The notes below the pieces were generated by a model that saw only the letters and a program-made list of their open reading frames with translations, ran no database searches and was not told the DNA's origin. From the NCBI GenBank assembly GCA_964467875.1, contig CAYXVO010000002.1, positions 1 through 24,399 on the forward strand: a DNA stretch of 24,399 nt. The letters are read 5' to 3'. Made by a program: the position numbers and the translations under genes. The stretch is from an uncultured Pseudomonadales bacterium. Its GTDB lineage: Bacteria > Pseudomonadota > Gammaproteobacteria > Pseudomonadales > Oleiphilaceae. Shown here one piece after another: positions 20,086 through 24,399 of the stretch; position 1 is the first letter of the stretch; each line of letters starts with the position of its first letter.

Positions 20086-20116
20086 CAATGTGTCCTTCGG
20101 GCGCACGGTGTACAAT

Positions 20117-20184
20117 CAGTCGCAAGCGGTACCAGTCGCAAGCTGTACATGAAGCAATCGCAAGCTGTATATGAACCAGTCGCA
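20117..20184 (+). repeat. Tandem repeat array, core CA(G/A)TCGCAAGC(G/T)GTA, in units of 16, 22 and 22 bp plus a partial unit
   Basis: CAGTCGCAAGCGGTAC (20117), CAGTCGCAAGCTGTACATGAAG (20133), CAATCGCAAGCTGTATATGAAC (20155), CAGTCGCA (20177). Confidence 0.9.
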
Positions 20185-20442
20185 GTTCGTGCTTGCGCGA
20201 GTCGCGACGGCTGCTTTAACGATACGCTGTCACTGACGTTTGCGGTAAACGGCTCGCGCTAAACCTCCAGCCAGGAGACGAGCTGACAGGATCGCGGATG
20301 CCATAGCCGCCGGAGCGGTCTTTTGTGAGTGCAAGGATAGTTCGCTCCTGGCTGATTCTCCAGGGGATTCTCTGGCGAGCGGGTGTTGAACGACGCGAGA
20401 CGTATCGCATCCAACGCAAGGTTTTTACGTGGGATATTATTG

Positions 20443-23100
20443 ATGTCGGTATCTGTTCCAGCGCGCATGCTGTTATTGGTGGTGTTCGGTGTGGCCTTGG
20501 CCGCCTGTGGTGGCGATAAGGATTCTGACCGCAAGGTGTTCAAGCAGCCCTTGGCCACCTTGAGTGGCGTGATCGGCATTCCGGCAGGGACTCTGGTGGA
20601 TCTTGATGTCGCCACGGATGACGATGGAACCAGTCTGAAGCGCAACAACGACTTCTCCAGCGCCCAGCGTATTCTCAATCCCGCCGTGATCGGTGGTTAT
20701 GTCAGTGACCTGCCTGGCCTATATGTGGTGCAAAACCAGGAGGGGCAGCCGAGTAACCGGAATTATCCGCAAGATCTGGCGGATGCGTTCAAGGTCAGGC
20801 TGTTTGCTGGCCAGACCCTGCAGCTTGAAGTGCATGATGCGGACGACGATCTGGTGTCAGCAAGCGGCGAGCCCAACCAGGATGGCCGGCGGCCCCGGCT
20901 CGCCCTGCAATTATTCCTTGAAGATGCCCCACAAACGGAGGTGGCCAGCGTCGCCGTGGGCGGGGCGCCCGAGGAGGTCGTCAGCGTGGGCCGGTTGACG
21001 GTGCCCGAGACCGGCGACTACTTCATCAGGGTCATGCCCCTGCCCAACCGGTCCGCCGACCAGGGTGGACCTGCTAATTATGTCTTGCGCCTGGAACAGA
21101 ACGTGGCGCCAAGCACAGCGTTGTCGGCGGTGGACGATTTTGTACCGGGTGAGGTCCTGGTGGCATGGGATCAGGAGCCCCCGACCAGCACCATGCGCAG
21201 CCAGAGCGCGCCGCTGACACTGGTGCAGGATGCAGGCCCGGTTCGCCGCATGCGGATCAATCATCCGGCGTTTACCAACACGGCTCGCAGCGGGACGGGT
21301 GGCGCCAGTGCCGCGCAGCTCCTTGAGCAAAAGCGAATCACGGTGGAGACGATTCGCGAGCTTCGCCGCCAGCCGGGCATCAAGTTCGCCGAACCCAACT
21401 ATATTCGCCGTGCGCTCGCCGTCCCCTCCGATCCCTATTACGCCCGCCAATGGCATCACGCCTTGATCAACCTGCCGTCTGCCTGGAACAGCAGTCAGGG
21501 TGAGGGCGTGATCGTGGCGGTGATCGATTCAGGCGTGCGTTTCGATCATCCGGACCTGGCCGGCCAGTTCGTGAGTGGCTATGACTTTGTCAGTGACCCG
21601 GACATCGCGCGGGATGGCGACGGCTATGACAGCAATCCGACCGACCCCGGCGATGAGGACGGCGGCAGCAGTTTTCATGGCACCCATGTGGCCGGTGTCA
21701 TCGCGGCACTGGCGGGCAATGGTCAGGGTGGGGTTGGTACGGCCCATGGCGCAAAGGTCATGCCGTTGCGAGTCCTTGGGCGTAAGGGCGAGGGGTTGGA
21801 TTTCGATGTGGCGCAGGCCGTACTTTATGCCGCCGGATTGGACAACGCCTCTGGGCGGCGGCCTCAGCGTCGGGCCGATGTCATCAACCTGAGCCTGGGC
21901 TCGCCCAGCGCTTCACAGACCCTCCAGGACGCGGTGGACCTGGCGAGCCGGGCGGGCGTCATCGTGGTGGCGGCGGCCGGCAATGAAAACTCCCCCCAGG
22001 TGGTTTTTCCGGCCGGGTACGCGTCGGTCTTCGCGGTCAGTGCGGTGGGGCCCGATAAAATCAAGGCACCTTATTCCAATCATGGCAGTAGCATCGATCT
22101 GGCCGCGCCAGGCGGTAATTTTAGGTTGGACATGGACAACGATGGCTATGCTGACGGCATTCTCAGCACCTGGGCCGATGACAGCTACGCCACGCCCCGG
22201 CCCGGATATGCCTGGATGGAGGGCACCTCCATGGCGGCGCCCCAGGTAGCCGGCGTGGCGGCTCTCATGAAGGCGGCGCGGCCCACCCTGACTGTGGCGG
22301 AGTTTCGCCAGTACCTGAACGAAGGCAAGCTGACGCAGCGGCTGGATCCGTCGAGCGATTACGGCAAGGGCTTGATCGATGCCTCCAAGGCCGTGTCGAC
22401 GGCGATCACCGGCGAGCCCAAGGCTATTCTGACAGCATTTCCCGGTTCTCTGGTGTTTGAAGGGCTGAAGGATAATGCGGAGTTGACGTTGGATAATGGT
22501 GGCAGCAACACCTTGCCGCTGACGTTGCAGGGGGCACCCGTGGTTGAGGACGGCGGATTGGGTTGGCTGAGCGTCATGCCGGTGGACGTCAGCGCCGAAG
22601 GGCTGGGACGCTACCTCGTCAGCATTGACCGCTCGGACTTTGTTCCGGGCGTGAGCTATTCCGGGCGGATTCTCGCCCAGTCCAGTGCCGGACCGGTGGA
22701 AATACCGGTTGTGGCGCGGGAGCCTGACCCGGAACGGGTTGCCAATGCCGGCACCCAATTTCTGCTGTTGCTGGATGCGGAGACCTTCCAGCCGGTGCGC
22801 TCGCTGGTGCTGGATCCGCCCCAGAATGGGTTCTATAACTTCACCCTGGAAAATGTGCCGCACGGCCGCTATACGCTGATGGTATCGTCGGACCTGGATA
22901 ACGATCTGCAGCTCTGTGACGGTGGTGAAGCCTGCGGCCTGTATCCGGTCGGCCAACAGCAGGTTTTCCGGGTGCCGGAGGATGTGGGTCAACCGCTGCT
23001 GTTTAATACCGGTTTCCACTCCGGTCTGGGCAGCCGTGCTTTGTCCGTGGATGCCGAGCCTGCCCCCGCCCCCGCAAGATTTCAGAGGATTCAACCATGA
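20443..23100 (+). CDS. Lipoprotein subtilisin-like (S8) serine protease with accessory domains
   Basis: Lipobox LAAC (Cys22 from ATG 20443). Catalytic triad VAVIDSG (D codon 21526), HGTHVAG (H codon 21676) and GTSMAAP (S codon 22228); oxyanion AAAGN; acidic loop DGDGYDSNPTDPGD; propeptide-like FVPGEVLV...AEPNY. Confidence 0.95.
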   Translation: MSVSVPARMLLLVVFGVALAACGGDKDSDRKVFKQPLATLSGVIGIPAGTLVDLDVATDDDGTSLKRNNDFSSAQRILNPAVIGGYVSDLPGLYVVQNQEGQPSNRNYPQDLADAFKVRLFAGQTLQLEVHDADDDLVSASGEPNQDGRRPRLALQLFLEDAPQTEVASVAVGGAPEEVVSVGRLTVPETGDYFIRVMPLPNRSADQGGPANYVLRLEQNVAPSTALSAVDDFVPGEVLVAWDQEPPTSTMRSQSAPLTLVQDAGPVRRMRINHPAFTNTARSGTGGASAAQLLEQKRITVETIRELRRQPGIKFAEPNYIRRALAVPSDPYYARQWHHALINLPSAWNSSQGEGVIVAVIDSGVRFDHPDLAGQFVSGYDFVSDPDIARDGDGYDSNPTDPGDEDGGSSFHGTHVAGVIAALAGNGQGGVGTAHGAKVMPLRVLGRKGEGLDFDVAQAVLYAAGLDNASGRRPQRRADVINLSLGSPSASQTLQDAVDLASRAGVIVVAAAGNENSPQVVFPAGYASVFAVSAVGPDKIKAPYSNHGSSIDLAAPGGNFRLDMDNDGYADGILSTWADDSYATPRPGYAWMEGTSMAAPQVAGVAALMKAARPTLTVAEFRQYLNEGKLTQRLDPSSDYGKGLIDASKAVSTAITGEPKAILTAFPGSLVFEGLKDNAELTLDNGGSNTLPLTLQGAPVVEDGGLGWLSVMPVDVSAEGLGRYLVSIDRSDFVPGVSYSGRILAQSSAGPVEIPVVAREPDPERVANAGTQFLLLLDAETFQPVRSLVLDPPQNGFYNFTLENVPHGRYTLMVSSDLDNDLQLCDGGEACGLYPVGQQQVFRVPEDVGQPLLFNTGFHSGLGSRALSVDAEPAPAPARFQRIQP

Positions 23101-23684
23101 TGCGAGCCTCTAATCGCCGCACAGCGCTTCGGGTCCGGGTCCCTGCACAGAAAGGGATCGGGCTGTTTATCCTCGGCAGCATGCTGCTGGGCTGTCAGGC
23201 CGATGAACTGGTGTTCCCGACCCAGAGCCAGCCCCAGGGGCTGGTGGGCGAGCAACTGTTTGTGGGGCAGCGCTGCGCCATGAAGCAGGCGGGCATTCAG
23301 TGGCTGGATTCCGAGGCGGACTGGCGGCGCCATCAGAGCGCCGCACCGCGCCAGGTTATTGTGCTGGACGACACCGTGCCGTCTCCGACGGACAAGCCGG
23401 CCATCGATTTCACCACCCACGCAGTCGTTATCGTGGGGCTGGGACAGAAGCCCAGCGGCGGCTATGCCGTCATGCTCGGTGCCGAAGGCGTGCAGCGCGC
23501 CGGCGACAGGCTGCTGGTTCATGTGCGGGTGGAGGAGCCGGCAGCGGACGCCTTCGTCACCCAAGCCCTGACCGCGCCCTGCGTCGCCGTAAAGGTGCCG
23601 CGCGTAAAAGTGCAGACCCTGCGTGCCCTGGATCAAAACGGACAGGTCATCGCGGAGGCCGCTCGGGCGGCAGGCCAAGGTTGA
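23097..23684 (+). CDS. PrcB-family protease-complex lipoprotein
   Basis: Lipobox LLGC. C-terminal IDFTTHAVVIVGLGQKPSGGYAV...VTQALTAPCVAVKVP matches the PrcB C-terminal pattern as recalled. ATGA overlap with the S8 stop, and RBS AGAGGA. Confidence 0.85.
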   Translation: MMRASNRRTALRVRVPAQKGIGLFILGSMLLGCQADELVFPTQSQPQGLVGEQLFVGQRCAMKQAGIQWLDSEADWRRHQSAAPRQVIVLDDTVPSPTDKPAIDFTTHAVVIVGLGQKPSGGYAVMLGAEGVQRAGDRLLVHVRVEEPAADAFVTQALTAPCVAVKVPRVKVQTLRALDQNGQVIAEAARAAGQG

Positions 23685-23708: not shown

Positions 23709-23793
23709 ACCTGTTAATTCATCCAGCCAATCGAATACGCCATCTTCCGGCGCGCCGCCTGTATCCGGCGTGGCCAAGCATTCAGGAGTCACT

Positions 23794-24399
23794 GTGAATC
23801 AAGTCTATAACGCCGATTCCATCGAGGTTCTCAACGGCCTGGATCCGGTGCGCAAGCGCCCCGGCATGTACACCGACACCACCCGTCCCAATCACCTGGC
23901 CCAGGAAGTCATCGATAACAGCGTCGATGAAGCCCTCGCCGGTCACGCCCGGCAGATCGATGTGGTGCTCAACGAAGACGGGTCGCTGTCGGTCTCCGAT
24001 GATGGCCGCGGCATGCCGGTGGACATCCATAAGGAAGAAGGCATTCCCGGCGTCGAGCTGATCCTCACCAAGCTGCACGCGGGTGGCAAGTTCTCCAACA
24101 AGAGTTACCAGTTCTCCGGCGGTCTGCACGGGGTGGGTGTGTCGGTGGTGAATGCCCTGTCGCAGCATCTGGAAGTGCTGATCAAGCGCGACGGCAACGT
24201 CTATCGCATCACCTTCGCCAACGGTGACAAGGCCAGTAACCTGGAAATCGTCGGCACCTGCGGCAAACGCAACACCGGCACCACGGTCACCTTCCTGGCC
24301 GATCCCAAGTATTTCGACTCCCCCAAGTTCTCCCTGACCCGCATGCGCCACGTGCTGCGGGCCAAGGCCGTGCTGTGCCCGGGCCTGAAGGTCACCTTC
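23794..24399 (+). CDS. parE: DNA topoisomerase IV subunit B, 5' part (runs off the window)
   Basis: Manual translation from GTG 23794 (RBS AGGAG): YNADSIEVLNGLDPVRKRPGMYTDTTRPNHLAQEVIDNSVDEA, DDGRGMPVD, LHAGGKF, SGGLHGVGVSVVNALS. TDTTRPNHL..EVIDNSVDEA is characteristic of ParE rather than GyrB. Confidence 0.96.
   Translation, partial: MNQVYNADSIEVLNGLDPVRKRPGMYTDTTRPNHLAQEVIDNSVDEALAGHARQIDVVLNEDGSLSVSDDGRGMPVDIHKEEGIPGVELILTKLHAGGKFSNKSYQFSGGLHGVGVSVVNALSQHLEVLIKRDGNVYRITFANGDKASNLEIVGTCGKRNTGTTVTFLADPKYFDSPKFSLTRMRHVLRAKAVLCPGLKVTF

Follow-up and report, generated by a model that had tools for sequence, protein, structure and literature searches.

We analysed a 24,399-nucleotide stretch of contig CAYXVO010000002.1 from an uncultured Pseudomonadales bacterium (hereafter the window), focusing on two open reading frames (ORFs) on its forward (+) strand. 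The ORF at 20443-23100 codes for a large subtilase of the S8 family, and the ORF at 23097-23684 codes for a lipoprotein of the PrcB family, a family known from the dentilisin (CTLP) operon prcB-prcA-prtP of Treponema denticola (PMC8167434). A previous sequence-only reading of this DNA had described a subtilase with an intact D/H/S triad and an LAAC lipobox that overlaps, by ATGA, a second lipoprotein carrying an LLGC lipobox and a PrcB-type C-terminal motif, with neither protein having Asp at +2. All of these elements held up in our analysis, and hidden Markov model searches placed both proteins above the respective Pfam cut-offs for Peptidase_S8 and PrcB_C. The positions of the individual features are collected in Table 1.

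The S8 ORF matches Peptidase_S8 (PF00082) over residues 353-629 with an E value of 1.8e-55 and 188.7 bits relative to a cut-off of 21.8, and in an alignment of 96 homologues the triad D362, H415 and S596 as well as the oxyanion residue N514 are invariant. A GTG at 20383 is an alternative start, but the ATG at 20443 is preferred because the orthologue from the same genus begins at the equivalent Met. Read from this ATG, the N-terminus is MSVSVPARMLLLVVFGVALAAC-GGDKD, of which MSVSVPARMLLLVVFGVALAAC is the signal peptide ending in the lipobox L19-A20-A21-C22, with Gly at +2. The lipobox Cys and the poly-Gly linker behind it (C-GGGG) are at least 90% conserved among the aligned homologues. In the AlphaFold2 (AF2) model, which has a mean predicted local distance difference test (pLDDT) score of 81, a signal helix and a disordered linker (residues 23-33) precede an all-beta PPC-like domain, an internal propeptide, the catalytic domain, two beta-sandwich domains and a disordered tail. 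The Pfam match to PPC is weak in the window protein (E 0.77), yet PPC is recorded for many homologues, and the propeptide region gives a Fervidolysin_NPro-like match with an E value of 0.008. The second C-terminal sandwich contains C825 and C831, both at least 90% conserved in the 96 homologues. These two Cys belong to a nearly invariant motif at residues 825-831 (window 22915-22935), D-x-N-N-D..(I)CD-x-GEACG-x-Y, located in the S8 domain whose divergence tracks that of PrcB best, as described below. Overall the family comprises >3300 proteins of ~850-970 residues that share ~40% identity over at least 90% of their length, and its source labels include Competibacteraceae, Hahellaceae, Chromatiales, Desulfobulbaceae, Myxococcota and Nitrospirae.

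Structural alignment to the AF2 model locates a likely maturation site. Specifically, the S8 catalytic domain aligns with Pro21717, StmPr1, AprV2/BprV and thermitase at Z scores of 45-51, and the mature chains of 5yl7, 9g8v, 3lpa and 1thm begin at model residues 326-329, where their first residues superpose. The precursor forms of Tk-subtilisin and subtilisin E, on the other hand, align from S8 residues 302-304. Because mature chains align from residues 326-329 and precursors from 302-304, the boundary between propeptide and mature enzyme is predicted to lie at ~Leu325/Ala326, between NYIRRAL and AVPSDPYYARQWHH, which would be the autoprocessing site. The lipid anchor is N-terminal to the propeptide, and an S8 protein that autoprocesses normally would therefore no longer have its catalytic and C-terminal domains joined to that anchor. 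Among characterised proteases, StmPr1 of Stenotrophomonas maltophilia, AprV2/BprV of Dichelobacter nodosus and Pro21717 of Pseudoalteromonas arctica are 41-44% identical to the window protein in the catalytic domain (Z 47-51) and have the mature N-terminal motif xPxDPxY..QW at the equivalent position, the solved chains covering the catalytic domain only. These three are secreted soluble proteases with C-terminal accessory domains and are not known to have either a lipobox or a PrcB partner.

The downstream protein begins with a long basic n-region and the lipobox L30-L31-G32-C33, with Gln at +2. It is a clear member of PF14343 (PrcB_C; ‘protease complex subunit PrcB family protein’ at NCBI and UniProt), which it matches over residues 110-168 with an E value of 3e-13 and 50.2 bits relative to a cut-off of 24. 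A six-frame search of the whole genome (81% complete, 607 contigs) scored this gene at 52.3 bits and returned it as the only PrcB_C gene. A sensitive search collected relatives from 2228 representative clusters at E ≤0.001, most of them single-domain proteins of 160-180 residues. In an alignment of 107 relatives the lipobox Cys is kept in 102, and G116, G122, P148 and P161 are invariant. The AF2 model (pLDDT 85) starts with an N-terminal beta-hairpin-plus-helix unit (residues 47-82), which a flexible loop separates from a beta domain of six strands (108-189). In the AlphaFold database this model is matched only by clusters auto-named ‘PrcB family’ or ‘PrcB C-terminal domain-containing’, with E values down to 5e-13. 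PrcB_C also occurs in other architectures, as tandem repeats fused to SLH or Cu_amine_oxidN1 domains and in one fusion to an extracytoplasmic function (ECF) sigma factor; no natural fusion of S8 and PrcB_C was present among the 10 multidomain PrcB_C proteins examined. One such protein of 1317 residues has seven tandem PrcB_C copies behind SLH domains, and the sigma-factor fusion is a 565-residue protein that joins sigma-70 regions 2 and 4 to at least two PrcB_C copies. Such arrangements suggest that PrcB_C may do more than partner proteases.

The junction between the two genes, AGAGGATTCAACCATGATG, reads AGAGGA-TTCAACC-ATGA, in which the S8 stop codon TGA occupies 23098-23100 and the PrcB ATG occupies 23097-23099. 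With a Shine-Dalgarno sequence inside the S8 3' end, the two genes are predicted to form a translationally coupled operon, and S8/PrcB overlaps or gaps of ~4 nt occur likewise in other lineages. The lipobox pattern [LVI][ASTVI][GAS]C is present in both N-termini (S8 residues 19-22, PrcB residues 30-33), in each case after a positively charged n-region and a hydrophobic h-region, and lipoboxes are present in the S8 protein at all 20 family loci and in PrcB at all 15 family loci. Both products are predicted lipoproteins.

Table 1. Features of the S8-PrcB locus, in window coordinates.
Feature	Position	Strand	Basis
Intergenic leader between the divergent amidase gene and the S8 gene	20116..20442	+	ORF map, sequence
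S8 subtilase lipoprotein gene (885 aa, stop included)	20443..23100	+	Translation; Pfam
Predicted type II signal peptide of S8, lipobox LAAC	20443..20508	+	Sequence; Cys22 codon 20506-20508, then GG
N-terminal all-beta PPC-like domain, residues 38-220, ahead of the prodomain	20554..21102	+	AF2 model strands 38-218
Internal propeptide, residues 233-325	21139..21417	+	AF2 model: beta-beta-beta-alpha-beta unit (233-320)
Catalytic subtilase domain, residues 326-657	21418..22413	+	Structural alignment, invariant triad
Catalytic codons	D362 21526-21528; H415 21685-21687; N514 21982-21984; S596 22228-22230	+	
Two C-terminal beta-sandwich domains, residues 663-760 and 772-855	22429..23007	+	AF2 model
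Shine-Dalgarno AGAGGA of the PrcB gene, within the S8 3' end, 7 nt upstream of ATG	23084..23089	+	Sequence
PrcB-family lipoprotein gene (195 aa, stop included)	23097..23684	+	Translation; Pfam; ATGA overlap with S8 stop
Predicted type II signal peptide of PrcB, lipobox LLGC	23097..23195	+	Sequence; Cys33 codon 23193-23195
Cys60 codon, first half of the Cys pair typical of S8-linked PrcB	23274..23276	+	Clade comparison
PrcB_C domain, residues 110-168, motifs GxxPSGGY and QxxTxPC, Cys162 (23580-23582)	23424..23600	+	Pfam

The linkage of the two genes was surveyed in 25 genomes of the window's GTDB family (its own included), in a 300-genome sample of the class and around six distant S8 homologues. 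A scan with the single S8 protein returned mostly unrelated S8 genes, with a metagenome-assembled genome (MAG) of the same genus as the only relevant match; the C-terminal beta-sandwich region is specific to this S8 family and served as the probe for its members. An S8 gene followed directly by a PrcB gene on the same strand was present in 17 of the 25 family genomes, as well as in one genome of another family, and two further family genomes with fragmented assemblies (G005 and G009) carry PrcB and S8 on different contigs. Besides the window's own genome, 36 genomes of the class sample carry PrcB_C, which in 16 of the 36 lies directly behind a member of this S8 family; the other PrcB_C genes of the sample lie next to unrelated genes, for example those for a response regulator, HemN, Ldh_2, MgtE, SIMPL and an ATPase of a type II secretion system (T2SS). 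Metagenomic PrcB relatives from outside the class again show the order S8 then PrcB_C. Four of the six distant S8 homologues (one labelled Nitrospirae, one labelled Desulfobulbaceae and two unnamed) have PrcB_C directly downstream, several of them with gaps or overlaps of 0-4 nt, and the other two (one labelled Myxococcota, one from Competibacter) do not. The adjacency of S8 and PrcB that the sequence-only reading had singled out for a survey is thus far beyond chance and, along with the PrcB_C match, supports that reading, with the caveat that the module is widespread rather than special to this lineage.

PrcB proteins linked to S8 also form a clade of their own. When 58 mature PrcB_C proteins were placed in a maximum-likelihood tree, they fell into two clades with support values of 91/84. 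The first contains 44 rows (38 S8-linked, 4 unlinked and 2 at contig edges) and the second contains 14, of which 13 are unlinked and one is ~0.9 kb from a different S8 gene. Both C60 and C162 are present in all 44 members of the S8-linked clade, as opposed to the second clade where Cys60 occurs in 1 of 14 members and Cys162 in none, position 162 being mostly Phe or Tyr. The wider PrcB alignment has both Cys in 95 of 107 rows. This pair is predicted to form a disulfide of the kind typical of an extracytoplasmic protein. PF14343 is a heterogeneous family in which the window PrcB belongs to a Cys-pair, S8-linked subfamily, and in which other members are unlinked or are wall proteins with tandem repeats. 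A mirror-tree style comparison of 18 syntenic S8-PrcB pairs was also performed, in which PrcB distances correlated best with those of the second C-terminal S8 sandwich (r 0.75; partial correlation of 0.64 with the catalytic domain controlled).

We next consider how this pair relates to dentilisin. In T. denticola, cleavage after Tyr158 activates the acylated PrtP, and the acylated N-terminal fragment is missing from the purified complex; PrcB and PrcA1 alone retain lipids and are the proposed anchors of the complex (PMC8167434). The active complex contains PrcB in equimolar amount. When prcB is deleted without polar effects, prtP is still transcribed but PrtP protein can no longer be detected; PrtP expression also requires the C-terminal domain of PrtP itself (PMC8167434). 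The window pair shares with this system an S8 subtilase that is acylated (here by prediction) and a ~20-kDa lipoprotein with a PrcB_C domain. It also shares a protease lipid anchor N-terminal to the activation cleavage site, so that the mature enzyme loses its anchor (here by alignment), and beta domains C-terminal to the catalytic domain. There are, however, several differences. The window S8 has an additional PPC-like domain ahead of the propeptide, its catalytic domain resembles the thermitase/AprV2 type more closely, and the host is a compost gammaproteobacterium rather than a spirochete. The sequence-only reading had noted no obvious PrcA, and in agreement with this the PrcA model NF033597 found no match in the 81%-complete genome. 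Since the dentilisin equivalog cut-offs are missed (scores below), PrcA was not found and the gene order is reversed, this module is not a member of the dentilisin system, even though it plausibly works like it.

A second group with some likeness to the window S8 is formed by the lipidated autotransporter subtilases SphB1 of Bordetella and NalP of Neisseria, which are likewise lipobox-bearing S8 proteases of diderm bacteria. SphB1 and NalP have a C-terminal autotransporter beta-barrel. In contrast, the AF2 model of the window S8 ends in two beta-sandwich domains with no barrel, and its partner is a separate lipoprotein.

Taken together, we lean, with guarded confidence, towards PrcB being a lipid-anchored subunit that stabilises and tethers the mature subtilase, as proposed for dentilisin. 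This reading is favoured because the location of the S8 anchor upstream of the propeptide and the presence of C-terminal beta domains match the logic of dentilisin. It is further supported by the hits of PrcB_C and the denti_PrcB model to the same C-terminal domain, the translational coupling, the recurrent gene linkage, the separate S8-linked clade with its Cys pair and the lipoboxes conserved in both partners. Under this model the S8 product would be a lipid-anchored subtilase zymogen composed of signal peptide, lipobox, Gly linker, PPC-like domain, propeptide, catalytic domain and two beta-sandwiches. Both proteins would be exported and lipidated and, lacking a +2 residue for inner-membrane retention, would reach the outer membrane. 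S8 would then cleave itself at ~325/326, so that its catalytic and C-terminal domains would no longer be attached to the N-terminal fragment that carries the lipid, and PrcB would bind the mature enzyme, perhaps via the last beta-sandwich domain. PrcB would thereby stabilise mature S8 and hold it at the membrane through its own lipid anchor, with no involvement of PrcA. We infer the autoprocessing event, the physical binding of S8 to PrcB and the tethering or stabilising function from the features described above. A broader version, in which dentilisin is a specialised case of a widespread ‘anchor hand-over’ in diderm bacteria, is more tentative and rather less likely than not. In that version a large family of lipidated subtilases sheds its anchor along with the propeptide at activation, and a Cys-pair PrcB that binds the C-terminal beta-sandwich holds and stabilises the mature enzyme.

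Several observations weigh against the tethering-subunit reading. The first concerns how faithfully PrcB accompanies the protease. Three family genomes (G008, G010 and G023) have syntenic S8-parE loci that lack PrcB, a fourth (G017) has the S8 family and no PrcB_C match, and in the class sample only 16 of 42 copies of the S8 family have PrcB downstream whereas 26 of 42 do not. Because so many orthologous S8 genes occur without it, PrcB is an optional rather than an obligatory accessory of this S8 family. The second concerns the distance from dentilisin. Against denti_PrcB (NF033596, an equivalog model) the window PrcB scores 41.4 bits relative to a cut-off of 125 (E 1.3e-10), aligning with model positions 100-166 of 176, and against denti_PrtP (NF033595, also an equivalog) the S8 protein scores 87 bits relative to a cut-off of 300, below the 179 bits it obtains with the mycosin model. 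Both proteins are thus far below the dentilisin cut-offs, and homology to T. denticola PrcB is confined to ~60 residues of the C-terminal domain. The gene order, with S8 first and PrcB second where dentilisin has PrcB first, is a further caveat. The third concerns what PrcB_C itself does. The core motifs GxxPTGGY and QxxTxP are common to both PrcB_C clades, including the one that is not linked to proteases, and to the SLH, Cu_amine_oxidN1 and sigma-factor fusions, and they are probably determinants of the fold, not of binding to S8. Because these motifs are shared with the unlinked clade and the fusions, the domain may have a more generic role. PrcB matched no solved structure by sequence profile, by Foldseek or by exhaustive VIA-align comparison (best Z 3.6), and so no function can be assigned to it from its fold. 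Finally, shared ancestry confounds the mirror-tree correlation, which is best treated as a weak lead, and the outer-membrane location is a prediction that follows from the +2 residues, Gly in S8 and Gln in PrcB, neither of which is the Asp retention signal of the E. coli Lol rule, a rule that may not be that of the host.

Some of these same observations are congruent with other roles for PrcB. A small, all-beta protein that is encoded directly downstream of a broad-type protease and co-translated with it could be a dedicated inhibitor or immunity lipoprotein, which would block the subtilase in the envelope until its release or export. Staphostatins and AprI/Inh are operon-encoded inhibitors of this general kind. 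The tandem PrcB_C arrays on cell-wall anchors recall multi-headed inhibitors, and the dispensability of PrcB in some lineages also fits. We nevertheless consider an inhibitor unlikely. T. denticola PrcB is equimolar in active dentilisin, and loss of PrcB removes PrtP rather than activating it (PMC8167434). Furthermore, Foldseek and exhaustive structural alignment revealed no similarity of PrcB to solved inhibitor folds.

PrcB could alternatively be a transient folding or secretion chaperone (foldase) of the subtilase that is absent from the final enzyme, in the manner of PrtM for lactocepin or Lif for lipases. Because the two genes are tightly linked in an operon and coupled in translation, their products would be made one to one, and the conserved Cys pair points to a protein that is stable outside the cytoplasm. 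The loss of PrtP protein in the T. denticola prcB mutant also fits a chaperone, but PrcB remains in the purified dentilisin complex (PMC8167434). The S8 protein, moreover, already contains an intramolecular chaperone in its propeptide, and we regard a foldase role as somewhat less probable again than inhibition. Last, it is improbable that S8 and PrcB merely share an operon without interacting, with PrcB_C as a generic envelope domain that has a function of its own, since although about half of the class-sample PrcB_C genes have unrelated neighbours and a few PrcB genes of the S8-type clade are away from any S8 or in genomes where the probe detected no member of the S8 family (G074, G285 and G340), 38 of the 42 placeable PrcB genes of the Cys-pair clade lie directly behind this one S8 family, in several phyla and often with overlapping stop and start codons, a pattern that is hard to explain without a functional link.

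The survey also yielded several observations on individual loci. The three family genomes with S8-parE loci lacking PrcB (G008, G010 and G023) have the order amidase, S8, parE, with only ~80 bp from S8 to parE in G023; PrcB would here have been lost or never gained with the protease retained. In the Competibacter MAG a frame that overlaps the S8 3' end (L088, 4695-5250) gives a weak PrcB match of 28 bits and may be a decayed PrcB remnant. In G074 and G285, in which the probe detected no member of this S8 family, a PrcB gene with the Cys pair comes directly after MgtE (loci L027 and L028), and another locus (L090) has the order MgtE, S8, PrcB. Side by side, these look like protease loss that leaves an orphan PrcB. 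A metagenomic contig (L044, 1184-6479) carries on one strand the prolipoprotein diacylglyceryl transferase Lgt, S8, PrcB_C and a CsgG/LpoB-like lipoprotein, a set of genes with a lipoprotein-processing theme.

The surroundings of the pair in the window are ordinary chromosomal genes, among them those for an AMP-binding enzyme, FadE, a GST, a response regulator of the LuxR type, and PAS-GGDEF and GGDEF-EAL proteins. An opposite-strand amidase gene is upstream of S8 and parE is downstream of PrcB, with S8 and PrcB as the only genes between them. At 18 of the 20 loci fetched parE is directly downstream, and at many an amidase gene is upstream, which argues for vertical inheritance of the locus rather than mobility. 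An origin from a mobile element or horizontally acquired island was considered and rejected in view of the unremarkable GC content and the family-wide synteny with parE and the amidase gene. A pattern scan of the S8 leader located a GC-rich, terminator-like hairpin (core 20306-20319, within 20268-20354) followed by the T-run CTTTTGTG, and found no sigma-70 promoter between the amidase and S8 genes. The parE ORF (window 23770-24399) is listed from the GTG at 23770, and its orthologues begin at the equivalent of the GTG at 23794, which has AGGAG 7 nt upstream; with that start the spacer between PrcB and parE is ~109 bp.

In regards to the host, the best named relatives of FadE (~60% identity) come from Gammaproteobacteria MAGs, Natronospira and Wenzhouxiangella, and near-identical DNA occurs in compost and manure metagenomes. 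A compost metatranscriptome contains near-identical contigs that span S8, the S8-PrcB junction (22554-23356) and PrcB. This cover is compatible with carry-over of DNA, because its depth is just as even across the flanking genes and intergenic DNA as across the pair.

UniProt and NCBI already auto-name proteins of this type ‘PrcB family’, and the literature searched contained no description of, or experimental work on, S8-PrcB pairs outside Treponema, which agrees with the expectation of the sequence-only reading that the pair is uncharacterised. In the literature on dentilisin, PrcB is said to be confined to oral treponemes and to have no homologues elsewhere (PMC8167434). In contrast, the genomes surveyed here have lipoproteins of the PrcB type downstream of a single large family of lipoprotein subtilases that is uncharacterised, both in Gammaproteobacteria and on contigs labelled Nitrospirae and Desulfobulbaceae. 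If the partnership works as in dentilisin, the pair would offer a simpler, two-gene model from non-pathogenic environmental bacteria for how PrcB stabilises a subtilase. Under the same condition it would also be a model for how a protease stays membrane-bound after the loss of its own anchor and for what the PrcB_C fold, which has no solved structure, does. It would likewise provide a functional annotation for the many gene pairs that are now listed as ‘S8 family peptidase’ and ‘PrcB family protein’.

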